From NCBI GenBank assembly GCA_964550845.1, contig CAZKAD010000003.1:447-64446 (forward strand): DNA of 64,000 bases, read 5' to 3'. Shown in pieces: positions 3,393-58,886 of this stretch. The stretch's first letter is position 1, and each line of letters opens with the position of its first letter. Under the pieces are notes generated by a model. The model saw only the letters and a program-made list of their open reading frames with translations, had not been told where the DNA came from and made no database searches. A program made the translations under genes and the position numbers. Source of the stretch: an uncultured Gammaproteobacteria bacterium (GTDB lineage Bacteria > Patescibacteriota > Patescibacteriia > Magasanikbacterales > UBA922).

Positions 3393-3806
3393 ATGCTAAC
3401 TTTTATTTTTATTCGAAGGATCAATATGTACCATTTTCTTAAGAATTGTTTTCCTTCGTTGACACGCAAAACATACAATTACACTGTCCGATCTCCAAGC
3501 TTTCAAGGATGGGTGATTGGAAAACATCAAAATATTGATGTCTGTTGCTGTGCCATATTCCGTAAAGGACCAAAAATAAAAATGGGCTTATTTGCGGTGC
3601 TTCCACACTATCAAAACAAAGGTTTTGGGAGAGAAATGTACAAATATCTCTGTAATCAATATCATTCTTTCCAATGGACAACTAACACACAAAAAGCATA
3701 CAATTTTTGGATCAAATGCGGAGCCATATTAATTGATACTTACATTATGGATGGAGTTAAATACCATCTGTTCAAGAACGCGCCAGTCGAAGAAAAAAAG
3801 AAATAA
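3393..3806 (+). CDS. Small GNAT-family acetyltransferase-like protein
   Basis: LPHYQNKGFGREMYKYL resembles GNAT motif A (Q/R-x-x-G-x-G/A). Confidence 0.4.
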   Translation: MLTFIFIRRINMYHFLKNCFPSLTRKTYNYTVRSPSFQGWVIGKHQNIDVCCCAIFRKGPKIKMGLFAVLPHYQNKGFGREMYKYLCNQYHSFQWTTNTQKAYNFWIKCGAILIDTYIMDGVKYHLFKNAPVEEKKK

Positions 3807-3892
3807 TTTCCTTTGGGAAATTATTAATTAAACGTCCTTGAAGGACTTTTAAGCGTCCTCGAGAAGGACTTTTAAACGTTCTCGAAAAGAAC
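3805..3892. terminator. Array of 3'-end hairpins shared by the convergent genes 3393..3806 and 3896..4123
   Basis: AATTTCCtttGGGAAATT overlaps the TAA stop. It is followed by TTAAACGTCCttgaaGGAC, GCGTCCtcgagaaGGAC and ACGTTCtcgaaaaGAAC. Confidence 0.6.
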
Positions 3893-3895
3893 TCT

Positions 3896-4123
3896 TTAAA
3901 AATATTTTTCAACCTTATCCTGCATGCTGTCAGGCACAAAAAGATGGTATCCTCCATAGAGAACTCCTAGAGAACCTCCAATAATCATGACGGTATGAAG
4001 GAAAGTTAGAATATTCATTTGAGTACTGGCAACTTGTTGACCATTTCGGCATTTTCGTTCCGAGTCAAGAGCCAATGAGGCGTAGACAAGAATAAAAGCA
4101 GCGACAATAAAAACTGCAAGCAT
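3896..4123 (-). CDS. Small membrane protein with two predicted TM helices
   Basis: 75-aa ORF with two hydrophobic stretches (AVFIVAAFILVYASLAL; VMIIGGSLGVLYGGY). It is convergent with 3393..3806 and shares the terminator hairpins. Confidence 0.4.
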   Translation of the reverse strand: MLAVFIVAAFILVYASLALDSERKCRNGQQVASTQMNILTFLHTVMIIGGSLGVLYGGYHLFVPDSMQDKVEKYF

Positions 4124-4159
4124 TTTCCTTTGGAAGGAAGAAAAAAGAATTTTCTTTTT

Positions 4160-4687
4160 TCAGGGAATGATTGGCTCCGAGACACAATAGACATACCCGT
4201 TATTGAACAAATTTCCATTGGTGGTGAGAGAAAGGGTTTGCATACTGCCATTCAAAAAGAGAGAAATTTTACGCTGAACGAGTGTAAGCTTAATCTTCGG
4301 ATTTCGTGTTGGTAAAATAACTTGCTGGGAAAATAAGTCATCAGGTCCCCGAACCAAGTCGAAAATATGAGCCCCAATAAACTGTGTTGCTTCGGCTCGA
4401 TCAAGACTAAGCAACATTTTTTGAACATCTTTCGGAAGTGAATCGTCCGGTACAACCAGTAAAGTCACTTTTGCTTTCGGATCATTGAGAAGATCTGGAA
4501 AATGTGTTTTTTCAACAAGAGTTTTGTAGATGGAAAAATTTTTATCTTGAAGAGCACTGTAAATTGTCCCCGGTTGAGGAGTCCAAGCAAGATAAGGATT
4601 TTTTGCAAGTGCTCGATCAAAACGAAGTTCACCTACACTGGGAAACTCTTTCGACCATTCTACGTTATACCCGCTGGTGACTGACAT
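4160..4687 (-). CDS. Fasciclin (FAS1)-like domain protein
   Basis: KVTLLVVPDDSLPKDVQKMLLSLDRAEATQFIGAHIF...NGYVYCVSEPIIP matches the FAS1 pattern TVFAPTNEAF..LP......IL.YHVV...NGVIHVID.VL.P. Confidence 0.45.
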   Translation of the reverse strand: MSVTSGYNVEWSKEFPSVGELRFDRALAKNPYLAWTPQPGTIYSALQDKNFSIYKTLVEKTHFPDLLNDPKAKVTLLVVPDDSLPKDVQKMLLSLDRAEATQFIGAHIFDLVRGPDDLFSQQVILPTRNPKIKLTLVQRKISLFLNGSMQTLSLTTNGNLFNNGYVYCVSEPIIP

Positions 4688-4741
4688 CTTTTACAGAAAA
4701 AGATTTTATTTTTCTACGAATAAAAGTTTGACCCCTTCTAA

Positions 4742-5959
4742 ATGTCTTCTTTTTGGCTTGAGGATCCAACAGAATTGTTCCGAAATTTGGAGCTTCTTCC
4801 AAATCCAGGGAGCAATATCGCGTCAAAGTTGAATGCGCTTACGAGATTGGCAGTTGTAGTCGGACTTGGAATTTATCTTCTTAATAAGGACTCAAAAGAG
4901 TCGAGCTCTCTCTGTATAATCACATTTGGTATTCTTCTTTTGTTCATCGTAATCACTGCTTATTATTCAAAGAGTAAGGAAGGTTTCCGACCTCCTCCGA
5001 TGCCAGTAGTTGAAAAGCCTACGCCAACATATCCTCTATCTTCACCAACCGTCAACCTCTCTGGATTGCAAGCAACCCCATTGTGGTATGATCCAAAATA
5101 CGGAGCTGGACCAAAAGAATATCGAGACCCTCCAGTAATTCCACCAAATCCGGCTGATGCTAAATTTTGGGGAGGATTTCAATCGAGGATTAATGAACCT
5201 CGACCACAAATTATTCACTCGAATGTTGAAAGTGTTCTGTTCAAAAATGAACAACCTTATTCACAGCGAATTAGCCTTCCCTCTCGACAGAGAAAAGGAT
5301 TTAAAATTCTTGGTGGACCTCATCAAGACGAACCTGAAATTCCATTTGTTATTGATGACCAGGGACTAAACCCCCCGAATTACACTCGTATTCGAGGATA
5401 TTCGATGCATGATCCGAGTGTTCCTCCTTATTCGAATCTTGAGCTATTATCACCAAGTCAATCTTTTGTTCCGGGAGCTCAAGTCCCTTCGGGACGGTCT
5501 CAACTTCATGCTTATGATGACTTTGCAAATGTTTGGTCTGCCGGAAACACTGACTTTTTGACCTCTAAGATGGCTATTCATCGTACTCATCCCGCGGTTG
5601 ATACTGGAGAATTCCGTCAAGCTTCCACAATTGGTCTGGCAGATTCAATGTACAATCCAACATTTAAACCGTTTGACCCGGCAAGCACTTATTTTAAGAC
5701 CAGTAATAACCCTTATGACGGTTTGTTCATTGGACGAAGTCTAATTGAACACGTTGATATGCGAGCTCCAAATGGTGAAGTTCTTCCCGGTTATTTGAGA
5801 ATGGGATTTACCAGCGACGACTTTATGGATGAAGCGACAAGTCGTCAAGAAGCAGATGAATTGTACTTTCGAGAAGCAATGGTTGCCGATGTTCGTGCTC
5901 GGATGAATGAGCGAGAGCAAGAATTCCGAATGGCACCTGTAATGAATCATTTCATGTAA
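4742..5959 (+). CDS. Pro-rich membrane protein (hypothetical)
   Basis: 405-aa ORF with N-terminal TM segments (LAVVVGLGIYLL; IITFGILLLFIVITAYY) followed by a long Pro-rich region. Confidence 0.6.
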   Translation: MSSFWLEDPTELFRNLELLPNPGSNIASKLNALTRLAVVVGLGIYLLNKDSKESSSLCIITFGILLLFIVITAYYSKSKEGFRPPPMPVVEKPTPTYPLSSPTVNLSGLQATPLWYDPKYGAGPKEYRDPPVIPPNPADAKFWGGFQSRINEPRPQIIHSNVESVLFKNEQPYSQRISLPSRQRKGFKILGGPHQDEPEIPFVIDDQGLNPPNYTRIRGYSMHDPSVPPYSNLELLSPSQSFVPGAQVPSGRSQLHAYDDFANVWSAGNTDFLTSKMAIHRTHPAVDTGEFRQASTIGLADSMYNPTFKPFDPASTYFKTSNNPYDGLFIGRSLIEHVDMRAPNGEVLPGYLRMGFTSDDFMDEATSRQEADELYFREAMVADVRARMNEREQEFRMAPVMNHFM

Positions 5960-6894: not shown

Positions 6895-6927
6895 TCCTTT
6901 TTTTCTTTCAATCGGAAAGGAAAGCGA

Positions 6928-9900
6928 ATGGCTGTCTTCTTCGCAAAAAGTCGGGACCCATTTTCAAACTTTTATCCGGTCTCATTTACTGTCGATGATT
7001 TGAAATACTCGAGTTCGGAACAGTATTTTATGGCCTCGAAAGCGAGATTCTTTAAAGATGTTGAAGCGGAGGACCAGATTATGGAAGCGGAATCTCCGAA
7101 AGAACAAAGAGAACTTGGACGTTCAGTCAAAAAGTTTGATCCAAGAGAATGGGATCGAGTTAAATTTAAAATCATGAAACAAGCCCTGTTGATTAAATTT
7201 CAACTTCCAAAGATGAAAAAGTTCCTTGTTGAGAGTCAACGAAAAGTTTTAATTGAAGCTGCACCTTGGGACGCGATTTGGGGAATTGGAATGGATGCTG
7301 ATAAAGCTGTGAATACACCCTTTCGTGAATGGGGAAAGAATGGACTTGGATTCTTATTGATGGAAGTTCGAGATTTTCTCCAAGGTAATTGGATTCAAGA
7401 AGACTTTGGTGTCTCAATGATTGGAAATTTCTATATCGGTGCACATCCAACTGAAGACCAAGCAAAGTTTCTTTTGGGAAAAGGAGTGAATCTATTTGTC
7501 TCCCTTGAGGAAAATCCAAGATATTTATCAGTTGTTGGTCAAGCATCGTCAAAAGTTTTTGCTCTTCCTACAGGAGGTATTCGAAATGATCAAGAGACAC
7601 TTGAATTTCTCGGTTGGTTACGAGATCAATATTTTCTCGGAAAAATCATTTATCTCCATAGTCGAAGAGGAATTGGAAGAACCGGATTGATTGCCAGTTT
7701 ATTTCTGAACTTGTTTCTCGGATATCAACCAAGTGATGCGTTGGATAAAGTTCGAAAATCTATTCATAGTCGAACTAATTTTAACCAGTCCTTCGGGACG
7801 TTTAAGCTTAAATTTATGCCTATTCCAGAAACTGCTTCACAAATAACTCAATTCACTCGTCTTGCCGACGGTGATAAAACCGATATTGATATGTCTGCTT
7901 ATACTCTTGAAGCAGAGAAAGCATGGATGACAAAACTTTCTGAAATTGAGCAAGACGACTTGATGACACGGGAAGATGTCGAATTGTATCAACAAATTGT
8001 ATCTCCTTCCTCTTCTTCAAAGGAAGTGAAAAAGGAAGATGAAATTAAACGTCTTGAAAAGTCTCTTAATCTTCCTGTTGGTGCAATTGAAGATGAGCAA
8101 GAAAATGACCCTCTTGCGGGTGCACTCGCAGAACTTGAACTTCGAAAGAGTGAAGAGAAGGAAGAACTTCGAAAGAGTGAAGAGAAGGAAGAACTTCGAA
8201 AGAGTGAAGAGAAGGACCCATTTGAAGCTGAACTTGAAGCGTTTGAAAATGAGGGTAAAAAAGATCCGCTCGAAGCTGAACTCGAGGCATTTGAGAATGA
8301 AGTAATCGAGCCTGACATCAAAACTTTCCTTGAAGAAGAGGCTAAAGTTGAAGTTAAACAACGAACTTCATTGACCGATCGAGATCTCGAAGAACAATTT
8401 CGACGTTTCGCTAATCAAGAACTTCATCTTCAAGCCGAGGAAGGTACATTTGTTCTTCAATCTGTCTTGAATGATATTTTCAATCGTTTTCTCGAACAAC
8501 AAAATATTCAAATTATCGATGTCGATAAGTTTGAACAAATCGCAATTCCCCTAATTGGAGAACCAGAGAAAATCGAATCAAAAATTCCCGAGTATGATGG
8601 AGATAAATATATTGAATCAAAAGTGTCAAAGTTGAATACTGGTTATCGAGTCAACTTTCGACTTCTTCCCGATGCAAATATTCGAATTACAAAAGTAAAA
8701 TCGCCAAAGCGATCACAAAAGAAGAAATCGAAAAGTGAAACTTTGTCTGAGAAAAAAGATGTTTCTCAATTGAGTCAAATTGAACCACCGAAAGAAGAGG
8801 TGAAAGAAGTGAAGATCGAGAAAAAACTTTCGTCATTTTTGTCCCATTTCTTCCCTGGCGATATTACCTTCATTCAACCGAATATCAATTTCACCGAAGA
8901 AACTTTGCATTATATGTCTCCAATGAGTAAAGCCGACAAACTCGCCGCATTACTTAAGACATATCCTCGTGCACAATTAGTTGTCGATGTTTTTGCTGGT
9001 ATTGGAGGCAATACACTTGGATTTGCTCGTGCAGGATTGCGTGTAGTCGCATATGAACGAGATCCGGAACGATTTAAAATGTTGAGAAATAACGTCCTTC
9101 ATTATCGGTTTGAGAAACAAGTGACGACGATTCGAGGAGAATTTAACCCCGGAAAAGATCTCGATATTATTCGAACTATTCAAAAGATTGAAGCAGACAA
9201 AGTAGTCTTCTTCTTTGATCCTCCATGGCTTCCATCTTTTGTCCAAAACTTTGACAAGTCACAATACATCTTAACTGGAATTACTCTTGCCGGTCAACTA
9301 CTTGAAGACATTGCTAAGAAAACTTTGCAGGAATATGGAGGATCGATATTTCATTTGCCTCCCGGTTACTCACTCAATTTGGCTGGAAGAATTGTTGATG
9401 ATAAATCTGATAACAAAGCGAGATTGATTTACTTTTTTGGCGATCAAATTCAAGCCAATATTGCCAAAGATTACAAACTGCAGATCAATTATGCAACTGA
9501 ATTTCCACGTGAACAATCCGAGGTCAAATATTCTCAAAATGAGTTAGTTGAACAACTGAAAGAAGTTGAACAACAAAAAGTGGAAGCTAAATTGTATCAA
9601 CCTCCGGTCAAAACAGTCTCGGTGGTCTTTCAAACTTTTCTGAATAAAAGCTTTCCTCGACGATCATATCAACATGAACCTTTCCATCCGAAAGCGGTTC
9701 ATAGTGGACAGCGAAAATTACTCTTGTCCGAGATTGAATTCTTGACTCGAGTTCTCTCAAAGGAAAAAACACTCGGTAAAGGCGGATCTTATACTATGCT
9801 TTACGTTGGAGCCGCGCCAGGAATTCATATTCCTTTGCTTGCAAATAAGTTTCCTGAAGTCAAGTTTATTTTGTATGATCCGGCCAAATTTGATATTGCT

Positions 9901-13071: not shown

Positions 13072-13118
13072 GTAAACGTCCTTGGGACTGGTTAAACGTC
13101 TTGAAAGACTGGTTAAAA
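13072..13118. promoter_or_regulatory. Two tandem copies of the conserved intergenic palindromic element (TAAACGTCCttGGGACTGGTTAAA; CGTCTtgaaAGACTGGTTAAAA)
   Basis: Direct reading. Located immediately 3' of the stop of 13120..14076 (-). Confidence 0.6.
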
Positions 13119-14138: not shown

Positions 14139-14166
14139 ATTAAACGTCCTTTTAGGACTGGTTAAA
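14139..14166. promoter_or_regulatory. Conserved intergenic palindromic element TTAAACGTCCttttaGGACTGGTTAAA; its TTA supplies the stop codon of 14162..14899
   Basis: Direct reading. The stop TAA (minus strand) lies inside the GGTTAAA flank. Confidence 0.6.
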
Positions 14167-19918: not shown

Positions 19919-19971
19919 ATGCTTAGGCAATTCTCCTCGATTAAACTTCTTTGAGACTTTTCGAATTGATT

Positions 19972-19996
19972 ATACGTCTCTTTAAGACTAGTTAAA
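19972..19996. terminator. Conserved intergenic palindromic element ATACGTCTCtttaAGACTAGTTAAA between convergent genes
   Basis: Direct reading. Located between the stops of 19652..19918 (+) and 20006..22171 (-). Confidence 0.6.
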
Positions 19997-25012: not shown

Positions 25013-25100
25013 TTTAATTTTGGGTAAACGTCTTTCAAATTAGTTAAACAAGTAAGGTTCTTTTTAAACAAGCCGATAGGAACAAATCATTTTTTATTCA

Positions 25101-33532: not shown

Positions 33533-33595
33533 AAACGTTTAACCAATCCCTCAGGACATTTAGCCACTTCAAAGAGTCCTTCGGGACGTTTAACC
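33533..33595. promoter_or_regulatory. Two copies of the conserved intergenic palindromic element in reverse orientation (GTTTAACCAATCCctcAGGAC...; AGTCCttcgGGACGTTTAACC)
   Basis: Direct reading. Located between the stop of 33601..34827 and the start of 32645..33511 (tandem, minus strand). Confidence 0.6.
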
Positions 33596-37390: not shown

Positions 37391-39592
37391 TTATTCTTTT
37401 CTTCCATTCCCAGATGAATACCGAAGAATTTCTTCTTCATTGATTGGCTCTTCTTCCGGTTCAAGTCCCGAAGGGACGGATTCAAGTCCCGAAGGGACGG
37501 ATTCAACCGTTTGTTGAATTGGTGGAGGAGGTGATAATTGTTCAATCACTAGAGGAGATCTCCGAATTCCTTTGAGTCGTTCGGCATCTTCGGGTTGAAT
37601 ATTCTTTTTGTCAACAACAGTGTAACTCTTTCCATCAGGTCGATAAATGTGCTGTTCCTTTCGATAGAGTTGATAAACAAGTTTCTCCGATCCAGCTTGA
37701 CAGTGATCGGCCGAAATGTACAATTCGCTTTGTTTTTGTTCATCGTTGACTAAACCATAATTAATTGTGTAATCGAGACGTTTGTGATATCCTCGTTCAT
37801 CTTTCATTGGCTTGAGGACAAAATGTCTCGCTCCAAAAAAGAAGGAGTCAATTGCCATCGTAACCTGTTTAAGTGGAATCAGGAAGTTTCCAGTGAGTCG
37901 AAGAAGAAAATATCCATCTTCAAGAGGGGGATTTTTTGGACTTTTATCTTTACCTGAACAACCAAAGAAAATATTCGAATTTCTTTCACTCGTTTTCCCT
38001 GTGATGTAATATTGATTCTTAATCAGATTAAAAATGCCGTAAACATTGCCTATCATCACTTCGGAATTGTTTGACGCGTCGTCGTTCAAATCCGACAAAC
38101 TATTTGCAATATAGTTCAAGTCTGGATAGTGCCTCAATACACGATTAAAGTTGACATGTTTACTCACTTCTTCTTCAAACTTTTCAAACTGCTCGACCCA
38201 ATTCTTAATGAGTTTATTGAGAAAAGGGAGGATTGAACGATTGCACTGAAATTCTTCCAGATTCCAATTGCAAGAATTTTTGTAAAGAAATCTCAAAGCA
38301 TCGCGATAAGACATCACAGTTGAGCAAAATGGAGTCATAAATTCTTGAGCTTTTGCCAAAAGAGCAATTTTAGGGGAAGATTCAATTCCTTCTGAAGAAT
38401 TTACTTGGAATTGTCTAAGCTCGGGAAATTCAAATCCAAACTCGTTCGGGTCAAACGAAAAAAGTTTGAGAAAATGTTCAATTGAGAAGCAATAAATTTG
38501 ATCTCCAACTTGAATAGTCGCTTTGAAAGTATCTTCAATTTGATCGAATTTTGTCTCATCAAACATAATATAATCGAAGCATTTTGTCGGAAGATCTTCT
38601 TCAATCAATTCGATCGCCTTTCCGAAATCTTTCTTTATTAATTCGATTGAATAGATTACTTCACCATGAATATAGAAATGAAGATGATTGAGTGTCAAGA
38701 CAAGATGGGGAATTTCACCAATTTTTGAAATTTGATCGGCAAGTGAATTCCATTTATTGACATAAGCGTCGACAAAATTTGTACCATATTCATGTGGATA
38801 ATAAGGATATGGCTCTTCTGGTTTTGGATAAACTTTGGCGTACTTTCGAATAAAATTGTACATCGGAGATTCATGAAGAGCATAGTCGAGTCCGGACCAG
38901 TCGAATGAAAATCCTCTTGACATATACTTTTCAACACGACGAAGCGTTCGGAACCATTCATATGGAGACTGTTCAAAAATGGCATTTGAATTGAGTGATG
39001 TTTTACGTTGTTTCAAGTTGGTATTTTCAAATGAAGTGATCAGTTTCTCTCCATCTGTAAACACACAACAAGCGTCAATGTCAAACGATTCGACGAGATC
39101 TTTTAAAGCAACGTTTGCATGAGTTAAAATTGCTTGAACATCAGGTTTCCTTCTATTTGTATCTTGGTAAACGTAGATTGTTCTCACCCATCTCTTCAAT
39201 CTTGAATATGTGTCAGATTCAGTCAAGACAGTTCCATGCTTTACAGGAAGATTATATCCCTGTGCAAGGAGATAAGAAGAGAGTTTTCGAAGTTTATCTT
39301 TATCAGCAATCCAAATATCTACATCCGAATCGCCCCATTTTTCTCCAATTAAATGTTGAAGGGGGAAACTACCTGCAATAATCATTTCATTTTGAGAGAG
39401 AAGATCTTGGAGTCCTGGAAATTGATTGTCAAACCAATTCTGTAGTGAATCTGGCAATCGATGAATCGAAACTTTTCTCTGAACATCAGAAGCTTCACTG
39501 ACTGATTTCAATAAGAAGGGGAATTTATTTTCTGCGATCCCTTCGTTATCGAGCTGCGATGAAGTCGCGCCCATGTTGTCTTTTCCATTCAT
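37391..39592 (-). CDS. Large protein with a pol-beta-type nucleotidyltransferase-fold motif; tandem paralog of 35348..37354
   Basis: AGSFPLQHLIGEKWGDSDVDIW and FDIDACCVF. The C-terminus has a duplicated SVPSGLE repeat (the DNA repeat ccgaagggacggattcaagtc x2 at about 37460..37505). Confidence 0.7.
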   Translation of the reverse strand: MNGKDNMGATSSQLDNEGIAENKFPFLLKSVSEASDVQRKVSIHRLPDSLQNWFDNQFPGLQDLLSQNEMIIAGSFPLQHLIGEKWGDSDVDIWIADKDKLRKLSSYLLAQGYNLPVKHGTVLTESDTYSRLKRWVRTIYVYQDTNRRKPDVQAILTHANVALKDLVESFDIDACCVFTDGEKLITSFENTNLKQRKTSLNSNAIFEQSPYEWFRTLRRVEKYMSRGFSFDWSGLDYALHESPMYNFIRKYAKVYPKPEEPYPYYPHEYGTNFVDAYVNKWNSLADQISKIGEIPHLVLTLNHLHFYIHGEVIYSIELIKKDFGKAIELIEEDLPTKCFDYIMFDETKFDQIEDTFKATIQVGDQIYCFSIEHFLKLFSFDPNEFGFEFPELRQFQVNSSEGIESSPKIALLAKAQEFMTPFCSTVMSYRDALRFLYKNSCNWNLEEFQCNRSILPFLNKLIKNWVEQFEKFEEEVSKHVNFNRVLRHYPDLNYIANSLSDLNDDASNNSEVMIGNVYGIFNLIKNQYYITGKTSERNSNIFFGCSGKDKSPKNPPLEDGYFLLRLTGNFLIPLKQVTMAIDSFFFGARHFVLKPMKDERGYHKRLDYTINYGLVNDEQKQSELYISADHCQAGSEKLVYQLYRKEQHIYRPDGKSYTVVDKKNIQPEDAERLKGIRRSPLVIEQLSPPPPIQQTVESVPSGLESVPSGLEPEEEPINEEEILRYSSGNGRKE

Positions 39593-40874: not shown

Positions 40875-40966
40875 CTTTTCCCTTTGGGGAAAAGATAGAC
40901 CCACTTTTGACCAGTCCTCGGGACGTTTAATTAGTTCAAAAAAAATCTTGAAGGGACGTTCAATTT
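40875..40966. terminator. Hairpin CTTTTCCCtttGGGGAAAAG plus two copies of the conserved palindromic element (CCAGTCCtcGGGACGTTTAA; GAAGGGACGTTCAA) between convergent genes
   Basis: Direct reading. Located between the stops of 39972..40847 (+) and 40965..42179 (-). Confidence 0.6.
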
Positions 40967-47924: not shown

Positions 47925-47968
47925 ATTAAACGCCAGAGGGCTGGTTAAACGCCAGAGGGCTGGTTAAA
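47925..47968. promoter_or_regulatory. Two tandem copies of the conserved palindromic element with a variant stem (TTAAACGCCAGagggCTGGTTAAA x2), in a divergent intergenic region
   Basis: Direct reading. The flanks are conserved and the stem differs (GCCAG/CTGGC) but still pairs, which is a compensatory change. It lies between the starts of 46585..47886 (-) and 48040..49707 (+). Confidence 0.55.
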
Positions 47969-48039: not shown

Positions 48040-49707
48040 ATGCCTCGTCGATCGACTCGACTTCATTTTCGAAAACTTGAAAATGGCGAAGTCATTCTTC
48101 TGAATGATAATCCAAATAGCGTCGAAGATGACGCAATCGAAGTTGTGACACGTGGAGGAAAGAGAAAACTAATTTTTGATGACGAAGATCAACCAGTTGA
48201 AGTTGATGTTCCTCCATTAGCCCAATTGAATCCTCCAGTTTCAAATATTCAAAAGAATGAGTTTGATCCACTTGAACAAACTTATATCGACTTTTACACT
48301 CTTGTAATTGGGGACGAGAAACTTTCTCGCAAACAAAGAAAATTACTCCGGGGTTATTGTAAAGAAGTGATTCAAGAGCAACCATCAGCTTTAAAGTTAC
48401 TTACGAGTAACATCTTTCATTCAGATAAATTAAAGTTACTTGAAATGCTTCGAGTGTTGAAGGATAAAGATCCGGACTCAGAAGATTATCTTGATTACAA
48501 AAAAGTTTATCAAACTAAATTTGAATCTGCACAGCGAAATTTCGATGAATTGTTAAGTCTACCACCTGATCTACAACGATCTCATACCGAAGAAAAAGAT
48601 CGAATCGACAAACTTGCCCAAAAGAAATCTTTTTCATTTCAAATCATCAATCTTCCTGTTGATGATGAGACTAAACGTTTCATCTATCAACGATATATTC
48701 ACTATGAACGAATGGGTAATAGTGATGATGAAAAGCCAAAACTTGAACAATGGTTGAACACAGTCTTGCAGATTCCGTATAAAGTGTTTATTGATCTTCC
48801 TTCAGAACGAGAATTTTGTTTGCGTAATTTTCGAGATATTCTTGATCGGGAAATTTATGGCATGCAAGTAGTCAAAGAGCAACTGTTGGTCTTTTTGAAT
48901 ACCAAATTGACCAATCCGCATGTTCAGGGATCCAATCTTGCTCTCCTTGGTCCTCCGGGAGTAGGTAAAACAAAAATTGCTCGCTTAATGGCGAAGGCAC
49001 TCAATCTTCCTTTTGCTCAAGTTCCTTGCGGCGGCCTTGAATCAATCGATCGTATCCGAGGTCATTCATATACTTATATTGGTTCTCAACCAGGTGAAAT
49101 AACTTCAGCCGTCCTTTCAATGAAAGCAAACAATGGGGTTATGTTCTTTGATGAATTTGAAAAGATTGGAAGTGAAAAAGCTCATCTGACTAATAGTTTG
49201 TACAATATTTTTCTCCATATTCTTGATCCTGAGCAAAATGGGAACTTTCATGATGATTACCTCGGGCTTGAAATTCCGATTGATCTTTCTCGAATGTGGT
49301 TCATTCTTGCAATGAATAGTTTACCAAATTTTCAACCTTTGATTGACAGATTGTATGTTGTTCAAGTTCCAGCATATACAATTCGAGAAAAGATTATTAT
49401 CGCCCAACGACATTTAATTCCGGAGATTTTCGCTGCATTGAAACTTGATCAAAATAGTATCATATTTACCGATGAAATTATCTCTCGTATTATTCATCAC
49501 TTTAATCTATCCAGTATTCCGGGTTTGAGACAATTAAAGAATATTCTTCGAGAGATTGTGCTAAAGATTCATTTCCTTCAAACGTCAAATCTTCAAATCT
49601 CTTTTCAATTGAAGAATATGAAACTTCCTTACAAACTTCAAGAAGAAGATCTTGATAAACTTCAATTAAATGTGAGTAAAGAAGATCGCCCTTCAATGTG
49701 GACTTGA
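48040..49707 (+). CDS. Lon-type AAA+ ATPase module with no protease domain
   Basis: [54 protein letters not shown]...[12 protein letters not shown]...LHILDPEQN...LAMN..., compared with E. coli Lon [55 protein letters not shown]...LFLLDEIDKMSSD...LEVLDPEQN...FVATSN. The ORF stops about 30 aa after the AAA+ alpha-subdomain and no Ser-Lys protease domain follows. Confidence 0.8.
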   Translation: [555 protein letters not shown]

Positions 49708-49769
49708 AACTCGTCCTTCACCGTGGACTTGAAACTCGTCCTTCACCGTGGACTTGAAACTCGTCCTCG
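49699..49769. repeat. Three tandem copies of a 25-nt hairpin repeat (TGGACTTGAAACTCGTCCTTCACCG); the first copy overlaps the last codons and stop of the Lon-like gene
   Basis: Direct reading. Each unit carries the inverted repeat GGAC..GTCC. The array is followed at 49770..49777 by AAAATTGA for the Pol X gene. Confidence 0.8.
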
Positions 49770-50837: not shown

Positions 50838-51749
50838 ATGACGTCAACTCTTCAGTTTCCGAAGCGACTCGAAGAACATGGAATTAAGATTGTTTTTGCG
50901 ATCGAGAAACCAATCGTCACAATAAGTCATGACAATGTAAACGATTTTACAGTTGACTTTACCGATGAAAAAGCAAGTTTAACCAATCCTAAAGGACGTT
51001 TAACTCGAGGTTGTCGTAAAGAGACAATGAATAAGGGCGAAGAAGGCGATTGGTATTTTCTTCGTTCAAACAATGGTATCTATACAATTCGCAGCAGATG
51101 TGATTGGCAAGTAATTGATCCAAATGGTAAGCCAATATTCAAGCTGGATCATTTTCCTCAACGATGTCCCACAATCTCTCCTTCTGGAAGATATATTTCT
51201 TACGTGATATGCTCTCGTGTCATCGAAAAGACTAAAAGTATACTCATTGATCTTCAAGATCAAAAGATTTTTGAATATATAGGATTACCGGCTAACTTTT
51301 CACCAGATGAAAAGTATTTTGCTTATCCTCTTGTGAATGAGGTGTTTGTTTGCACTACTAAAGATAAGAAGCTTGTTATCCAACATTCTTTTTCAAAATA
51401 CAATCCTCACATTAACACTGTTCTTTTGTCTAACACTCATATCGTCATTATTTGGAGAGGCTTGCATGGAACTATAAAAGTAATGAAAATTGGTGAAAAA
51501 AATGTCACACATACTGATCAATCAGCATATTACCATATTCACTCTCATCTTTATTCTGATGGAACTCTATTATCTGTTGGAACAGATGAAATTAAAAAGA
51601 TCAAGTTTAATTTTGAAGAACCGAAGATTGAATCAGTTCCTCCAAATATCGAGATGAATCAAAAAGACGATTCGGTTCCTTCAAATATCGAGATGAATCA
51701 AAAAGACGATTCGGTTCCTCCAAATATCGAGATGAATCAAAACGTTTGA
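50838..51749 (+). CDS. Hypothetical protein (possibly a beta-propeller) with three C-terminal PPNIEMNQKDDSV repeats
   Basis: 303-aa ORF. 3x 39-nt repeat at 51640..51745. Confidence 0.6.
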   Translation: MTSTLQFPKRLEEHGIKIVFAIEKPIVTISHDNVNDFTVDFTDEKASLTNPKGRLTRGCRKETMNKGEEGDWYFLRSNNGIYTIRSRCDWQVIDPNGKPIFKLDHFPQRCPTISPSGRYISYVICSRVIEKTKSILIDLQDQKIFEYIGLPANFSPDEKYFAYPLVNEVFVCTTKDKKLVIQHSFSKYNPHINTVLLSNTHIVIIWRGLHGTIKVMKIGEKNVTHTDQSAYYHIHSHLYSDGTLLSVGTDEIKKIKFNFEEPKIESVPPNIEMNQKDDSVPSNIEMNQKDDSVPPNIEMNQNV

Positions 51750-51758
51750 ACATTTTAA

Positions 51759-51800
51759 TCATCCTTTGGGATGATTAAACGTCCTTTGGGACTGGTTAAG
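51759..51800. terminator. Hairpin ATCATCCtttGGGATGAT followed by the conserved element TAAACGTCCtttGGGACTGGTTAAG between convergent genes; its TTA is the stop of 51796..52785
   Basis: Direct reading. Confidence 0.65.
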
Positions 51801-53449: not shown

Positions 53450-53507
53450 TTTAACTAGTCCCGAAGGACGTTTAACCAATTCAAAAAGTCCCGAAGGACG
53501 TTTAACC
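53450..53507. promoter_or_regulatory. Two tandem reverse-orientation copies of the conserved element (TTAACTAGTCCcgaaGGACGTTTAACC; AGTCCcgaaGGACGTTTAACC)
   Basis: Direct reading. Located between the stop of 53527..54255 and the start of 52815..53429 (both minus strand). Confidence 0.6.
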
Positions 53508-54350: not shown

Positions 54351-54376
54351 TTAAACGTCTCTTCAAGACTGGTTAG
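54351..54376. promoter_or_regulatory. Conserved element TTAAACGTCTCttcaAGACTGGTTAG immediately 5' of the histidine-kinase ATG
   Basis: Direct reading. The element ends 0 nt before the ATG at 54377, in a divergent intergenic region. Confidence 0.5.
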
Positions 54377-56182
54377 ATGCCTCTTCGCAAACTGGCTTTC
54401 TATGTGAATCAACTTGTTTCGACCTCTCTAAATGATTTCTTCTTGAATTGTCTCAAGGAAATTCAAGAACAGACAAAATCTAATTCGGCGAATCTTCGGG
54501 TCTTTAACGGTCCGACAATTCAAACCTCAACAGATTCAATTGAAACAAATATTCATTCGGAGAAAGCAATCATTACGCGATCTATTTATTTTGACGAAAA
54601 AGAATCATGGATACCCTTATTATCTGGAGATAAAGTCTGTGGTCTAATTGGCTTACTCAGTCCAAAAGAGCGTCCAAATCAGTTTGTTGAACAACTAATC
54701 AACTTAATTGTTGCTCGAATTCTATCGATCAAGAAAGAATTACCAAATGATTCTTTTATCTCGAACATGAGTCATGAATTGAGAAATCCTTTGAACGGGT
54801 TACTGGGATATCTTCAAATTCTTGAATCATCGGGGTTAAATTCTGCTCAACAAGGATATCTCTACTCGGCACAAAAATGCGGTTTGAGTTTAATTCGAGT
54901 CGTCAACGATATCTTAGATTACTCAAAACTAATGTCAGGTAAAATGAAGTTAAACGTACAAATTACCAATTTGTATGATTTACTTGGTTTTGTCGAAGAA
55001 ACTCTCCATATTTCAATCCAAGAAAAAGGACACACTTTTACCCTCTTTTTTCATCCAGATGTCCCAAAGATGATTTTAACCGATTCTCAAAAATTAGCTC
55101 AGATTTGTATTAATCTGCTAAGTAATGCAATTAAATTCACACCGGCGAAAGGAAAAATTAACTTTGAAGTAAATCTGATGATCAAAGAAAAAGAATATCT
55201 TATCTTTAAGATTGCCGATACTGGTTGTGGCATTTCAAAAATTCAATCGGATGAATTGTTTCGAACTTTTACTCGACTTCATCATTCAAGAGAAGAGGGA
55301 ACAGGGCTTGGATTAGTTATTTCGAAAAAACTAACCGAATTGCTCTCAGGAACTATTCGTCTTGAAAAATCTTCATCTGAAGGTTCGGAATTTGTTTTTG
55401 AAATTCCACTTCAGAGAGCTCAAGAAGTTCGAAGTTCTCAACTTGGATTTAAGAAAGAAGTTTGTTTATTTGTTTCAGAGAAAGTTCAAACAGAATTAAA
55501 TCCACTGCTATTACGATGGGGAATGAAAGTATTTAATGTTCAATCTTTTTCAGAACTTTTAACAATCTTGAGCAGTTATGTATATGATTTTGAACTTGTC
55601 ATTCTTGAAGATGGAGAAAAAGAATTTGAACAAAATTCGAATAAGATTTGGGAAATTTGTCCAAAAATTCCAATTATACATGCCTGTAAAATCTTACCTC
55701 AAAAGAAGAGTGACTCATATTTTCATCTGCTTAATTTTACTCCAACAGAATTGTACAATTGTATTGCAAGGGCCTTGGAAAATTCTCTCTATTTGAAAAA
55801 GAAAAATTCGATTCGACTTGATCTGAAGAAAAAGATTTTGATTGCTGAAGATGATCCAAGTGGAAGGGAAATTTTGTCTAGATTACTCCAATCAATTGGT
55901 TTCTCGGAAATTGATTGTGCCGAAGATGGTCTTCAAGCCTTGAATATGATTCAAAAGAAAAGTTATTCTTACTTATTCATTGATTTGAAAATGCCGGTTA
56001 TTGACGGGTATGAAGTAATTACCACAATAAATAAGAAACCAAATAAGACAATGAAATTAATTTGTGTTTCAGCATCTGTTACAGATGAAGATAAACAATT
56101 TTGTCAAAAAGCATCTGTTCCATTTCTTGCAAAACCGGTTCAATTTCGAAATCTACAAGACTTGATGGTTTCATTGAGTTAG
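54377..56182 (+). CDS. Hybrid sensor histidine kinase: N-terminal sensor region, HisKA, HATPase_c, a degenerate middle domain and a C-terminal receiver (REC) domain; soluble
   Basis: H-box MSHELRNPLNGLLGYLQIL. N box LLSNAIKFT. G1 DTGCGI. G2 GTGLGLVISKKL. Receiver: ILIAEDDPSGREIL...LFIDLKMPVIDGYEV...LAKP. No TM helices were seen. Confidence 0.85.
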   Translation: MPLRKLAFYVNQLVSTSLNDFFLNCLKEIQEQTKSNSANLRVFNGPTIQTSTDSIETNIHSEKAIITRSIYFDEKESWIPLLSGDKVCGLIGLLSPKERPNQFVEQLINLIVARILSIKKELPNDSFISNMSHELRNPLNGLLGYLQILESSGLNSAQQGYLYSAQKCGLSLIRVVNDILDYSKLMSGKMKLNVQITNLYDLLGFVEETLHISIQEKGHTFTLFFHPDVPKMILTDSQKLAQICINLLSNAIKFTPAKGKINFEVNLMIKEKEYLIFKIADTGCGISKIQSDELFRTFTRLHHSREEGTGLGLVISKKLTELLSGTIRLEKSSSEGSEFVFEIPLQRAQEVRSSQLGFKKEVCLFVSEKVQTELNPLLLRWGMKVFNVQSFSELLTILSSYVYDFELVILEDGEKEFEQNSNKIWEICPKIPIIHACKILPQKKSDSYFHLLNFTPTELYNCIARALENSLYLKKKNSIRLDLKKKILIAEDDPSGREILSRLLQSIGFSEIDCAEDGLQALNMIQKKSYSYLFIDLKMPVIDGYEVITTINKKPNKTMKLICVSASVTDEDKQFCQKASVPFLAKPVQFRNLQDLMVSLS

Positions 56183-56242
56183 AAATTGATGTTTGCGAAG
56201 AAAAAAGTTGATGGGTAGTCAATCAGAAATTTGATTTTTGAC

Positions 56243-56297: not shown

Positions 56298-56405
56298 CGA
56301 TTTTTCAATATTTTTGACCGTTTTTCCCGACATTTCCGTTCAGGTTGATCTATTGTTAATTTCTCTTTCTTTCAAGAAAGAAAAGTTATTTGACTCTCAC
56401 TTTCG

Positions 56406-57203
56406 TTACTTTTCCGAAGATTGTTCTCCTTTCTCATCAATTGATCCATTTGCATCATCGGCGCCCTCTTGAATAACGGAGAGAGGAGTTGAAGAAATTT
56501 CTCCTGGGGTTTGGAACATTTTCATTGCAGTTCCCACCAGTGCATGAATATCCAGTTGTCCGGCTGAAGCTTGTTGCTCCATATTTTTCACCATCCTCGC
56601 AAATGCGCCATTTTTCATTAATTTAGTTGCAATTGCGATCGGATTACCAGCATTTTCGTCCATCATTGGAGAAATCTCCGCAATCATGTCATGAACTATT
56701 TTTTCTTCGTTAGTCGGCACTGGAGATGATTCGAGAGTTGTCAATAGTTCTCTTGCTTGACTGTCAGGGAAGAGAAGAGTTGTAATTGTCAAAAGATGAG
56801 TCCAAACTGCATCTGCAGTTTTTGGATCGGACTTCTCGAGAATCAAGTTAATTGGAAGATAGATTCGATCGCTATATTTGAGAGTTTGATCAACTGGCTT
56901 TCTTTTTGCAAGGATATCTTTCATATTTCTTACAATGTATTCAGAAAAACAGTTAATATGTTTGAGTACAATTTCAGGCTTAACCACTCCAGGATTAACA
57001 TAAACAAGTAATCTTGCGTAAAGATCGAGAGGACGTTGATGGGTTCCAATTCGGTTTGAACCTGAACCGGAGCCAAAACTCTCACTCAAAGCATTTACAA
57101 ATTCGGAAATAGCCGTAAAGGCAAGCTTTTGGGTATTTGTCAGCATTCTCTGTTTGTAAGAAACAGAGAATACTTTAACCAATTCTTCAGAATGTTTAAC
57201 CAT
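56406..57203 (-). CDS. Hypothetical protein
   Basis: 265-aa ORF. The conserved element GTTTAACCATCCttttGGACGTTTAAC (57194..57220) overlaps its start codon. Confidence 0.6.
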   Translation of the reverse strand: MVKHSEELVKVFSVSYKQRMLTNTQKLAFTAISEFVNALSESFGSGSGSNRIGTHQRPLDLYARLLVYVNPGVVKPEIVLKHINCFSEYIVRNMKDILAKRKPVDQTLKYSDRIYLPINLILEKSDPKTADAVWTHLLTITTLLFPDSQARELLTTLESSPVPTNEEKIVHDMIAEISPMMDENAGNPIAIATKLMKNGAFARMVKNMEQQASAGQLDIHALVGTAMKMFQTPGEISSTPLSVIQEGADDANGSIDEKGEQSSEK

Positions 57204-57265
57204 CCTTTTGGACGTTTAACAAATTGTTCATTTATTTTTACTCCGAAGAGCAAAAATTATCTAAA

Positions 57266-57745
57266 TCACTTAAATAATCGTTGAAGATCGTTATCATTTG
57301 TCACCCATGGAAGCAACCCGTAAGATTGCTGATGATCATAGATAGTCGCATTGTCTCCAATTAGATAACTGCCTTGATAAGACCAGTTCTTTGTTGAGAC
57401 TGAGAATTCAATTGGTTGATCAAATCTCTCAAAGTTGACTTTTTTGTCAAGGATCGTATTGAATTCTTGAACCGCCGATGATGAAAGTTGATTAAATGAG
57501 AGAGATCGAACGGCTAGTTTGTTTCCTTCAATGCGAGCAAACAGACAAACATATCGCTTAAGCACATCATACTCTCTTCCAATCACTTTTGAGAAGATGA
57601 ACTTTTGAGTTCCGTTCGAATTTAAGTTTAAGTTTAACAAATTGCAACTTTTCTCTGCATATTCGGCATTGGTAACATAGCAGCCATGCATAAGATAGTT
57701 ACCTTTGCTTTCAAGAAAAATTGCATAGAGCTCCATCTCGATCAA
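57266..57745 (-). CDS. Hypothetical protein
   Basis: 159-aa ORF. TCAATTTT lies 38 nt upstream (57783..57790). Confidence 0.55.
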   Translation of the reverse strand: MIEMELYAIFLESKGNYLMHGCYVTNAEYAEKSCNLLNLNLNSNGTQKFIFSKVIGREYDVLKRYVCLFARIEGNKLAVRSLSFNQLSSSAVQEFNTILDKKVNFERFDQPIEFSVSTKNWSYQGSYLIGDNATIYDHQQSYGLLPWVTNDNDLQRLFK

Positions 57746-57811
57746 GAAAATTCAATATTTTTGAAATAGTCAAAATTTTAATTCAATTTTCCAAAGTTAC
57801 TTTTCACTCTT

Positions 57812-58810
57812 TTAAGTCTTCGCCAATTCTTCAAGATGACGAAAGTTGTTTGATATTTCTGCCAACATGGTCATATTATCGAATAGTAATGTATCAACTG
57901 ATAAAGCAAGTTCATCCAAATTTTTTGTAGTTTCAAGAATACTTCGCACCAAATCCTTCAAAACATTTTCTTGTTTTTGAATTTCTTGAGCAAGTTTACT
58001 TTTATCTTCAACCACTTCGATCTTTTGTTTTAGTGATGAAAGCAAAGCCGATGTTTTTTCATGAGCTATTGTTAATTTTGCGTGTTGTTGAAGATAAAAT
58101 CTCTTCTTTTCTAAAATCTTTTTACTTGAAGTTAGAATGTTTCTTTTCTGTTCCAACATATTTTGAATCTTAGTTGTTTCGACTTGTTGATTATGGTTCA
58201 AGATTTCATAGAATTGAGAAAGAATTGTTTTAACTCCTTGTGCAACACGAGGTTCTTTGTAAAAGCTTTCCATTGAAAGCGTCAAAAGAATTCTTCGTTT
58301 CTTTGAATTACAATTTGTAATGAAATAACATTGTTCTTTGTTTTCTCGATCAATGACCATACAATCTCCATCAAAAAGTACAGGCTTATATTCAAGAGTT
58401 CGAAAACAAAGTTTGAATCTTTTCATCTGCCGAAGTAAAGCAGCAAATTTATTAACGCTTTTATTCTCTTCGCCCTTGATTGAAATTTGCCTATCATAAA
58501 GATCTACAAATCCAGATTCATTTTGAAGAAATGTGTCAAGATGATCTATTGATTTGTATTTTTGTCTCAATTCAGGCTCGTCGACTCCTTGTATAAATTT
58601 TTCACTCATTTCATCCTTTGGAAGTAACTCAAATTCATATTGGAGTTTCTTTGATGGAATTTTATGCTTACTGGGTACAGAAATTAGAATTGAAAAAGCC
58701 GAATCTAAACTGACAATTTCAAAGTAACGATAGTATCCATCAATAGTGTAATATTTATCAACCAAAAATCCATTTGATTCAAACAATTCAACGCACTTAT
58801 CTACGCTCAT
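57812..58810 (-). CDS. Hypothetical protein with a C-terminal coiled coil
   Basis: 332-aa ORF. The C-terminal half is rich in heptad-like K/E/L (...LAQEIQKQENVLKDLVRSILETTKNLDELALSVDTLL). Confidence 0.6.
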   Translation of the reverse strand: MSVDKCVELFESNGFLVDKYYTIDGYYRYFEIVSLDSAFSILISVPSKHKIPSKKLQYEFELLPKDEMSEKFIQGVDEPELRQKYKSIDHLDTFLQNESGFVDLYDRQISIKGEENKSVNKFAALLRQMKRFKLCFRTLEYKPVLFDGDCMVIDRENKEQCYFITNCNSKKRRILLTLSMESFYKEPRVAQGVKTILSQFYEILNHNQQVETTKIQNMLEQKRNILTSSKKILEKKRFYLQQHAKLTIAHEKTSALLSSLKQKIEVVEDKSKLAQEIQKQENVLKDLVRSILETTKNLDELALSVDTLLFDNMTMLAEISNNFRHLEELAKT

Positions 58811-58844
58811 TGTTTCTGGAATGAATCTTTTTGATCAATTTCTG

Positions 58845-58886
58845 GCGTTTAACTTGTCTGAAAGATGTTTAACTCGTCTAGATGAG
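58845..58886. promoter_or_regulatory. Degenerate pair of the conserved element (GCGTTTAACttgtctgaaagatGTTTAACtcgtctagatgag) in a divergent intergenic region
   Basis: Direct reading. The flanks are conserved and the stems are weaker. Confidence 0.4.

Follow-up and report, generated by a model that had tools for sequence, protein, structure and literature searches.

A very small palindromic repeat, probably mobile, in the genome of a Mimiviridae-like virus

Why should a compact viral genome carry the same short hairpin, flanks included, again and again between its genes and even within some of them? The 64 kb window analyzed here (the whole 64,000-nucleotide stretch of contig CAZKAD010000003.1; 37% G+C, 91% coding and 67 open reading frames (ORFs) according to our own gene map) raises this question, as it harbors a palindromic element, reading TTAAACG, a small stem-loop and GGTTAAA, for which a preliminary description of the same DNA had offered three readings: a sequence-conserved variant of the Mimiviridae hairpin rule for mRNA 3'-end formation, a promoter component, or a small mobile palindromic element. 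Judging from the sequence sampled, which comprises the window and fragments of the genome, only the last of these is supported, namely by precise insertions with duplicated flanks, by polymorphism between strains and by non-orthologous positions in a relative. The element is probably a duplicative “nano” palindromic repeat, comparable to miniature inverted-repeat transposable elements (MITEs) and bacterial repetitive extragenic palindromes (REPs), which measures about 15 nt, with a (G)TTAAA target duplication in addition, multiplies in tandem and has at times been recruited as a 3' hairpin.

Anatomy of the element

The strict pattern TTAAACG-N8-22-GGTTAAA is matched nine times in the window, against 0.03 matches expected (none of 100 shuffles reaches nine), and a covariance model built from an alignment of 28 copies and run in cmsearch with the filters off yields 17 non-overlapping matches at E<0.02, which become about 25 units at 16 sites (S1 to S16, Table 1) once the overlapped tandem partners suppressed by cmsearch are added. 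Thirteen of these 16 canonical sites are intergenic, although intergenic DNA makes up just 9% of the window (p about 1e-11). The element is thus real, and all 14 sites listed for it earlier do contain it; that list was incomplete, having overlooked the perfect copies at 7780-7805 and 50978-51003, both within ORFs, a degenerate one at 1686-1712 and a second subfamily, likewise within ORFs (5478-5503 and 37460-37506).

The stem-loop that had been claimed is backed by pairing in 89.9% of the alignment cells, which falls to 24-59% when the partner columns are shifted, and by covariation, with 14 both-side stem changes against 3.7 in shuffles (0/500). Column entropy rises from the flanks (0-0.4) through the stems (0.4-0.9) to the loops (1.2-1.8); the stem is maintained by compensatory changes while the loops drift. 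The particular stem swap reported for the copy at 47925 (GCCAG...CTGGC) needs correcting, as the variant reads TTAAACGCCAGAGGGCTGGTTAAA, with a stem of either GCC/GGC or CCAG/CTGG.

A unit is usually 21 nt long (range 19-30) and reads (G)TTAAA followed by C-GTCC-(3-8-nt loop)-GGAC-TG(G), the body being about 15-16 nt, and one further (G)TTAAA ends each array; since (G)TTAAA stands on both sides of the body, the element or array is bounded by a 5-6-nt direct repeat, which behaves like a target-site duplication. Internal array junctions read CTGGTTAAAC, and the left-most TTAAAC usually lacks a preceding TGG, so the left boundary is sharp and the flanks are direct, not inverted, repeats, the sole inverted repeat being the 4-5-bp stem (GTCC/GGAC) that takes up nearly the entire body. 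A long form has TYTTYGAADTRG added after the hairpin (copies starting at 53505(-), 33593(-) and 19949, and others in strain contigs L041 and L174), and subfamily 2 combines a GTCCC/GGGAC stem and GGW with 5-nt direct-repeat flanks, TTCAA at 37460-37506 and CTCAA at 5478-5503. Both strands are used, also inside ORFs, and the in-ORF copies are read in different frames and strands (NFNQSFGTFK, SLTNPKGRLT, VKRSDEEL), which places the conservation at the DNA level; a peptide repeat (units reading LVKRPEG, with a KR processing site) was rejected on these grounds.

Insertions, strain differences and relatives

The gene set of the window is of the nucleocytoplasmic large DNA virus (NCLDV) type and includes a VP39-like poly(A)-polymerase regulatory subunit fused to a cap methyltransferase, collagen-like proteins, DUF2738, DUF5767 and DUF5832 proteins, a hybrid histidine kinase, an SFII helicase, an AAA ATPase and a P9_TM gene (the Pfam record of which comes from the orthologs in L167 and L174). 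Many starts have a AAAATTGA motif upstream, and many stops have a palindrome behind them; promoter motifs of the AAAATTGA type and 3' palindromes are both listed as hallmarks of Mimiviridae (PMC6163669; PMC4402537), in agreement with the Mimiviridae-like nature proposed before. As 100% identical sequence is found in several public assemblies (SRR10036080-82, SRR36526117 and GCA_013565595.1/JACCDK01), the window is not an assembly artefact. Comparison of its DNA with a phage collection gave no match, and Rfam and tRNA scans found nothing. Two kinds of relatives could be set against it, namely strain contigs (L040, L041, L170 and L174) that are 88-97% identical to the window, and a largely syntenic “virus B” (loci L030 and L167) with 54-74% protein identity. 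Strains of the window virus occur in the samples SRR12762303, SRR13208895, SRR24742824 and SRR32414321.

For three sites inside ORFs, homologs with an empty site are available. At S11, two homologs on contig L215 read GCA GTT TTA AC/T (the slash marks the insertion point), and the window reads GCA AGT TTA AC[C AAT CCT AAA GGA CGT TTA AC]T, so that exactly 21 nt are inserted, TTTAAC is present in duplicate and the flanks can be aligned on both sides. At S2, 7 amino acids of the window protein (...SRTNFNQSFGTFKLKFMPIPET) are missing from two homologs, P0135 (54% identity; a stand-alone NADAR-PTP protein reading ...SRIMFNR-------KFMPIPET) and the more distant P0138 (37%), and the DNA is TTC AAT CGT AAG at the empty site of virus B and TTT AAC [CAG TCC TTC GGG ACG TTT AAG] CTT AAA at the filled one. 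At 5478-5503, finally, virus B has CCT GGT CAA CAG CTT, its ortholog being without the 7 amino acids AQVPSGR that are present in the window and in L174 as GGA G[CT CAA GTC CCT TCG GGA CGG T]CT CAA CTT. The words found in duplicate at the three filled sites are TTTAAC/TTTAAG (S2), TTTAAC/TTTAAC (S11) and CTCAA/CTCAA (5478-5503), so that the target-site duplication expected of a MITE is seen in each filled versus empty comparison. The comparisons as a whole show de novo insertions into existing words of the TTTAA(C) or CTCAA type, both between genes and, in frame, within them.

The units inside ORFs are 21, 21, 21, 21 and 24 nt long, those between genes 19-30 nt, and the restriction of the former to 21 or 24 nt fits frame-preserving selection acting on untargeted insertions. 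Unoccupied TTAAA/TTTAA words number 204 in coding and 71 in intergenic DNA, and those occupied by canonical elements 3 and 13, respectively. We infer that purifying selection removes most of the coding insertions, with only units of 21 or 24 nt surviving in ORFs.

Closely related strains differ in both the number and the presence of the units. S13 has three units in L041 and two in the window (the loops differ, the stems are the same); S15 has one unit, with a GCC/GGC stem, in L041 and two in the window; and S2 has two tandem in-ORF units in L170 and L174 and one in the window. L174 has a 31-nt long-form unit right after the stop of the ortholog of gene 6048-6782, at which the window shows a 30-nt gap, and L041 has a unit whose TTAAAC carries the stop of the ortholog of gene 57812-58810, where the window has a single TTAAA. 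Conversely, S4 is missing in L170, which retains a single TTAAA at its position. Insertion polymorphism between related genomes, as known from MITEs, is therefore seen in L041, L170, L174 and virus B, and the comparisons show that units amplify and contract in tandem, differing even between close strains. The right breakpoint of a larger strain difference falls exactly at the TTAAA of S4: the 2.3-kb segment 11876-14161, holding the ORFans 11942-12952 and 13120-14064 (no Pfam domain, and no paralog in the window by BLASTP), is missing in L170, which has 263 nt of unrelated sequence instead. Together with S13, beside which virus B has two extra genes, S4 makes two elements located near edges of gene content.

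As a separate matter, stretches of about 100% identity to another strain take turns with stretches of 75-90%, each hundreds of bases long (51704-59811 against L041, 1993-8162 against L174 and 6826-22566 against L170), a mosaic that suggests frequent recombination in the natural population. The boundaries of these blocks (in L041, L170, L174 and L040) do not consistently fall on elements, and the idea of the element being a recombination hot spot was dropped, save as an aside on S4 and S13.

A comparison of flanks and stems in a related virus, as had been advised, proved informative. Virus B has about eight units at six sites in 33.8 kb, one site being inside an ORF, with the same GGTTAAAC flanks and with stems of ATCC/GGGT or ATCTC/GAGAT, and its sites are non-orthologous to the canonical ones of the window (a possible exception being the 3' end of the AAA gene, where the window has the array 49686-49767 and virus B, at the orthologous position, its own canonical array). 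The comparison thus shows different sites and a family-wide replacement of the stem with retention of the GGTTAAAC flank; from same flanks, different stems and non-orthologous sites, the family must already have existed before the two viruses split, has been homogenized within each genome and turns over in position.

Outside these genomes the element is hard to find. The covariance model gives 23 matches in 53.5 kb at six further loci (four of JACCDN01 and two belonging to divergent strains of the same virus), but no credible one in the 685 kb available from 38 relatives (33-44% helicase identity). A nearer relative, L034 (14 kb; 61% helicase identity), has no copy either. A metagenome scan for the full element matched only JACCDN01 contigs of similar G+C, in which 2-5 units form an array and which have no overlap with the window. 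In IMG/VR, a scan for GGTTAAACGTCC-N3-8-GGAC returned 29 scattered single matches, consistent with chance, and a scan for the flank only returned, among the matches listed, mostly single ones on phage-like contigs and a few giant-virus contigs with GGTTAAAC-based tandem arrays. The latter, AT-rich and with unrelated partner sequence, are L084/L103/L104, L077/L123, L093, L098, L120, L121 and L131 (e.g., TTGGTTAAACAAGGCAAACGCC three times with an AGGC/GCCT hairpin); the search design favors such matches, and no control 9-mer was run.

3' ends, binding proteins and mobility

For a role of the element in forming mRNA 3' ends, generic hairpins (perfect, with 5 bp or more in the stem, two or more G:C pairs and a loop of 3-10 nt, the elements being masked) provide the yardstick. 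They are present in 10 of the 13 convergent regions (shuffle mean 2.2), 18 of the 38 tandem ones (4.7) and one of the 12 divergent ones (2.5), i.e., in 28/51 regions containing a 3' end against 1/12 divergent regions (Fisher p=0.004), and differ between loci (e.g., in regions 10543-10572, 11866-11941, 27858-28027 and 46505-46584): the window virus obeys the Mimiviridae hairpin rule through generic hairpins. The element, found in 4/13 convergent, 5/38 tandem and 4/12 divergent regions, has no 3'-end preference (9/51 against 4/12, p=0.25), and divergent regions account for a larger share of its hairpin-bearing regions than of the generic ones (4/13 against 1/29, p=0.026). The earlier statement that most copies lie just after stops therefore holds only in part: a 3' end is present in the regions of nine of the 13 intergenic sites, the other four sites are divergent, and the rate per region is no higher where there is a 3' end.

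A dedicated, sequence-specific mRNA 3'-end or polyadenylation signal, that is, a conserved subclass of the hairpin rule in which a viral RNase III would cleave and the UUAAAC/GGUUAAA flanks would add specificity, can draw on the same nine sites, on seven of the 13 lying within 10 nt of a stop (against 13% of the unoccupied words), on the compensatory changes preserving the stems, on the general use of 3' hairpins in the window, and on S4, S5 and S13, at which the element is the only perfect hairpin detected; hairpin-dependent polyadenylation per se is established in Mimiviridae (PMC4402537; PMC6163669). We nevertheless regard such a signal as improbable in view of the above rates (9/51 and 4/12 for the element, 28/51 and 1/12 for generic hairpins) and of several other observations. 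The orientation to the adjoining gene is about 50:50 (S3, S4, S5 and S12 are antisense, S8, S9 and S13 sense), and, the flanks being direct rather than inverted repeats, the RNA would differ between the orientations. The fold is weak, with a mean of -4.65 kcal/mol, the best 26-nt folds of convergent regions (elements masked) having a median of -9.7; S1, S9 and S12 already have a stronger generic hairpin nearby; and the positions are not conserved in virus B. A 3'-end signal, moreover, is expected to be absent from coding sequence, whereas five sites (5478-5503, 7780-7805, 28055-28107, 37460-37506 and 50978-51003) lie inside ORFs of apparently intact genes, P9_TM and capping-related ones included, whose mRNAs efficient cleavage would truncate. 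A sequence-conserved hairpin rule is, on account of the distribution, the mixed orientation, the weak stem and these at least five in-ORF sites, not supported as the principal explanation. The promoter reading fares no better: the element lies anywhere from 0 to about 120 nt away from the ATG, the orientation is mixed and AAAATTGA motifs exist in addition to the element, for which reasons a promoter component was rejected. A correction concerns the copy at 57174-57219, which is 5'-intergenic, with the true ATG at 57146 as judged from strain L041.

It might be argued that the element is a DNA-level binding site for a viral protein (a transcription factor, or one acting in genome architecture/packaging or in recombination/replication), with GGTTAAAC being recognized and the hairpin an accessory. 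The flank word is indeed the most conserved part (entropy 0-0.4) and is kept in virus B despite the change of stem, the element, like many protein-binding sites, is orientation-independent, found by preference between genes and arranged in tandem, S4 and S13 lie at edges of gene content, and GGTTAAAC tandem arrays occur in other giant-virus contigs (with no control for these). Such a site, however, would explain neither the precise 21-nt genic insertions with duplicated flanks nor subfamily 2, which has CTCAA/TTCAA flanks and no GGTTAAAC; GGTTAAA is not enriched outside the elements (about 12 observed against about 13 expected by composition, our own estimate from counts), no fixed distance to starts or stops is kept, the boundaries between high and low strain identity do not track the elements, and the family is missing from 685 kb of relatives. 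We therefore hold this explanation to be very improbable.

The mobile repeat is accordingly preferred, and its history could have run as follows. Units would insert into words resembling (G)TTAAA or CTCAA, duplicating 5-6 nt, and would then multiply in tandem; selection would clear most coding insertions, and copies would survive best beside stop codons, persisting there on account of being harmless or of providing the stop itself (the TAA in TTAAA). The latter had been noticed before and does apply to genes 14162-14899, 51796-52785 and 3896-4123 as well as to several copies in related loci. The element may have been co-opted as a 3'-end hairpin at S4, S5 and S13, a possibility that stems from its being the only hairpin detected there.

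How the units would move is a different question, for which two mechanisms may be envisaged: a trans-acting enzyme that recognizes the small hairpin and makes a 5-6-nt staggered cut, or, with no dedicated enzyme, template switching or gene conversion for which the microhomology of the flanks would serve as primer. The former would explain the duplicated words, and the latter, combined with slippage, would explain the arrays and their homogenization, CTCAA/CTCAA flanks being explained less well by microhomology-primed template switching and slippage. An origin solely by local replication slippage plus gene conversion or template switching between similar hairpins, with no dedicated enzyme and with copies that would not be mobile as transposons are, is a rival as regards the mechanism only and not the nature of the repeat. 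It agrees with tandem copy changes of exactly one unit, which are typical of direct-repeat slippage, with each genome having its own homogenized stem, as gene conversion would give, with the lack of an enzyme candidate among the 30 ORFs scanned with Pfam, and with the precedent of the yeast mitochondrial GC42, likewise without a known transposase (PMC4478555). Slippage, on the other hand, cannot make the first copy at a new locus (S2, S11, 5478-5503 and the sites specific to L174 and L041), and priming by a TTCAA or TTAAA donor would leave the donor word on one side at 5478-5503, where CTCAA is found on both; on balance we consider it rather unlikely. Our more tentative proposal, one we would not bet on at even odds, is that this would be the smallest transposable unit described so far, with a body of about 15 nt, one 4-5-bp hairpin and a 5-6-bp (G)TTAAA duplication, mobilized in trans by a putative enzyme of the giant virus or of a virophage/transposon.

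Several points weigh against the mobile reading. Pfam scans of 30 window ORFs recognized no transposase, integrase, HUH enzyme or nuclease, and the window showed no “autonomous” element of greater length that shares these ends. A body of 15-16 nt is far below that of any MITE we know of, a reason not to take enzymatic transposition of it for granted. Filled and empty sites can be cleanly compared only at S11, S2 and 5478-5503, which are also the only sites at which outgroups polarize gain against loss, the flanks of S4 (in L170) and of the site at 57800 (in L041) being diverged or rearranged; when just two strains are compared, a unit lost through slippage from one flanking repeat to the other would look like a unit gained. 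Retention of the GGTTAAAC flank at 54-74% protein identity, along with the compensatory stem changes, shows a constraint that a neutral repeat does not need. Moreover, seven of the 13 sites between genes have a stop codon no more than 10 nt away, in comparison with nine of the 71 unoccupied intergenic TTAAA/TTTAA words, a closeness that could reflect a selected role at 3' ends.

Comparison with known systems places the element close to several of them and squarely within none. The hairpins of the Mimiviridae rule are reportedly locus-specific in sequence and longer. What the element has in common with that rule (Byrne et al. 2009; Priet et al. 2015, PMC4402537) is a hairpin palindrome in a Mimiviridae-like genome, often past stops; what sets it apart is a conserved primary sequence, direct-repeat flanks, a stem of 4-5 bp, its occurrence in tandem arrays, divergent regions and ORFs, and its variability between strains. 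It resembles bacterial REPs and bacterial interspersed mosaic elements (BIMEs) in being an imperfect conserved palindrome of about 20-40 nt that is strongly intergenic, often lies between gene ends, is found in both orientations and in clusters, and has undergone lineage-specific expansion; a REP is by definition a short imperfect palindrome, highly repeated and mainly extragenic, as are the about 25 units here with 13 of 16 sites intergenic. REPs and BIMEs are mobilized by RAYT, a Y1 HUH transposase, and we know of no target-site duplications made by REPs. The element differs from them in lacking the GTAG head (it is absent from the consensus, and the Pfam scans of the 30 ORFs found no member of the RAYT/Y1 transposase family), in its head-to-tail rather than alternating units, in its flanks resembling target-site duplications and in its eukaryotic-virus host. 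MITEs are roughly 50-800 bp long and derive from an autonomous element with the same ends, neither of which applies to a 15-16-nt body accompanied by no transposase (in the 30 ORFs) and no longer same-ended element (in the window).

The closest functional analogues are the GC clusters of yeast mitochondria, which, like the Allomyces double-hairpin elements and the repetitive hairpin-forming elements of sponges, are short hairpin repeats of an AT-rich compact genome. GC42 is a 42-nt hairpin with AG as its target word, with loops that vary more than stems, with presence/absence variation between strains and without a known transposase (PMC4478555; for GC clusters, Weiller et al. 1989, as far as cited therein). 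GC clusters and the element share a short duplicated target word, single and tandem copies, variable loops and presence/absence between strains, the element being unrelated in sequence, half the size, viral and targeted to a 5-6-nt (G)TTAAA. Rickettsia palindromic elements (Ogata et al. 2000), said to be bacterial, about 100-150 bp long and inserted in frame into genes, are a parallel as selfish palindromes tolerated as extra peptide segments, the inserts here being only 21-24 nt (7-8 amino acids) and most copies intergenic. Pandoravirus and Pithovirus repeats have units of about 140 bp or more. These giant-virus repeats (the Pandoravirus “submariner” MITEs, PMC4495683, and those of Pithovirus, PMC10664404) are similarly non-autonomous and have intergenic and some genic sites; they are, however, classical MITEs or repeat units with long terminal inverted repeats, much larger than a body of 15-16 nt, and belong to other virus families. 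The attC sites of integrons, imperfect palindromes of about 57-141 bp that carry the inverse core RYYYAAC at one end and the core GTTRRRY at the other, came to mind because GTTAAAC fits GTTRRRY, and were discarded with the GGTTAAAC words being direct, not inverted, and the unit 21 nt.

Mobile DNA has seldom been documented in viruses (PMC4495683), and our full-text literature search found no REP-, MITE- or GC-cluster-like family, nor any sequence-conserved repeated hairpin family, described in Mimiviridae. Short palindromic mobile repeats are already known as a kind, the unit here being unusually small, and if it is moved by an enzyme, that enzyme recognizes an unusually small substrate. Sequences resembling 3' hairpins can, it seems, spread as copies and not only arise singly, and such copying is a simple route to new terminators, stop codons and short peptide insertions (here in the P9 membrane protein gene, the PTP-capping fusion gene and an ORFan). 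Were the smallest unit really mobilized in trans, it would reshape a Mimiviridae-like genome via 3' hairpins, stops and segments of 7-8 amino acids. On the practical side, the element disrupts short-read assembly (the L040 contig ends in an array), can lengthen ORF calls (a false N-terminus at 57203) and is a polymorphic strain marker for an uncultured virus present in at least five separate sets of sequencing runs.

Site catalogue and further observations in the window

Table 1. Copies and arrays of the element and of its putative relatives in the 64 kb window
Site	Position (strand)	Units and setting	Adjoining features and conservation
Degenerate copy	1686..1712 (+)	TTAAACGTTCCTAATGGGCTGGTCGAAA; 14.1 bits, marginal	Loop contains stop of ORF 53-1699
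S1	3828..3900 (+)	Three tandem units, convergent region, after generic hairpin TTTCCTTTGGGAAA	Right end overlaps stop of gene 3896-4123(-); identical in L174-L176; virus B has the generic hairpin alone, after an acetyltransferase gene (hairpin common to both viruses)
Subfamily-2 unit	5478..5503 (+)	CTCAA-GTCCCTTCGGGAC-GGT-CTCAA, in P9_TM gene	Codes for extra AQVPSGR
S2	7780..7805 (-)	One unit, antisense, in 1204-aa NADAR-PTP-MTase-VP39 ORF	About 7 residues added within ...FNQSFGTFKL....
S3	13072..13117 (+)	Two tandem units, antisense	3 nt off stop of gene 13120-14064(-)
S4	14140..14166 (+)	Single unit	Right TTAAA carries stop of gene 14162-14899(-); at right edge of 2.3-kb two-gene strain indel
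S5	19949..19996 (+)	Long-form plus short-form unit, convergent	10 nt off stop of collagen-like gene 20006-22171(-); identical in L170
S6	25024..25048 (+)	Degenerate, divergent region; 17.2 bits	12 nt off ATG of gene 24626-25012(-)
S7	28055..28107 (-)	Two 24-nt in-frame units	C-terminal tail of gene 28028-28615(-); VKRSDEEL VKRSEEE
S8	33538..33593 (-)	Two units (one long form), sense	8 nt past stop of gene 33601-34827(-)
Subfamily-2 array	37460..37506 (+)	2.2 x 21 nt, 100% identity, TTCAA-GTCCCGAAGGGAC-GGA	In ORF 37391-39592(-); codes for ESVPSGL ESVPSGL
S9	40906..40964 (-)	One good and one degenerate unit, convergent region	Adjoins stop of gene 40965-42179(-); generic hairpin also present
S10	47926..47968 (+)	Two identical 19-nt units, GCC/GGC stem, divergent region	Between helicase and AAA genes; conserved in L040, whose contig ends within the array
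25-nt x 3.3 array	49686..49767 (.)	GTCC-TTCACCGT-GGAC-TTGAAAC-TC	Overlaps AAA gene stop; may be a diverged relative of the family
S11	50978..51003 (-)	One unit, antisense, in ORF 50838-51749(+)	Adds 7 residues in ...SLTNPKGRLT....
S12	51775..51800 (+)	Single unit, convergent, preceded by hairpin ATCATCCTTTGGGATGAT	Right flank carries stop of gene 51796-52785(-); identical in L041
S13	53450..53505 (-)	Two units (one long form)	Between genes 52815-53429(-) and 53527-54252(-)
S14	54351..54377 (+)	Single unit, divergent region	Adjoins ATG of hybrid histidine kinase gene; identical in L041
S15	57174..57219 (-)	Two units, stems GTCC/GGAT and ATTC/GAAT	Upstream of true ATG (57146) of gene 56406-57146(-)
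S16	58848..58886 (-)	Two degenerate units, divergent region; 17.6 bits	Copies better preserved in L041

Hairpins other than the element are also shared between loci in places. An identical hairpin, TTTCCTTACCTCGAGAGGTAA, follows two different genes of the window (59783-59809 and 60863-60946), and three 3' hairpins of virus B (L030 6443-6510, 7105-7168 and 8102-8294) have a common CTTCGCGAAG core; other hairpin “families” may thus also have spread by copying.

The ORF hosting S2 (6928-10542) is a single one of 1204 amino acids with NADAR, PTP-like, cap methyltransferase and VP39-like domains, the counterpart of which in virus B is split into proteins of 342 (L167 7108-8136) and 945 amino acids (L167 8170-11007). 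Its PTP active-site motif reads HSRRGIGRTG, with Ser replacing the Cys of HCKGGIGRT in virus B, and because of this substitution the PTP domain of the window may be catalytically inactive. As for gene order, the window genes at 22217-26826 are inverted relative to virus B (window 10573-26826 against L167 11043-18136), those at about 10573-19600 are without an ortholog in the virus B loci, and the two extra genes of virus B at the position of S13 encode an RNase_T protein and a 221-aa ORF.

Repetition in this genome is by no means confined to the element. Tandem paralogs are found at 59810-63074 (three ORFans of 350-363 amino acids with 28-31% identity), 35348-39592 (668/733 amino acids) and 30782-31965 (185/187 amino acids), and collagen-like genes cluster at 14162-16471 and 20006-22171. 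Coding tandem repeats that are perfect or nearly so, have periods of 27-90 nt and bear no relation to the hairpin element are present at 422-774, 1828-1935, 8137-8216, 42069-42161 and 51636-51742 (e.g., 39 nt x 2.8 and 27 nt x 3, both at 100%, and VPPNIEMNQKDDS at the end of ORF 50838-51749). That same gene has at least three tandem paralogs on L215 (a 1590-nt contig of a related strain or virus, from SRR24742820), each following the same module of a hairpin plus AAAATTGA, and a motif of about 47 amino acids, with 42-50% identity, is common to the otherwise unrelated ORFs 10573-11109, 27351-27857 and 51796-52785.

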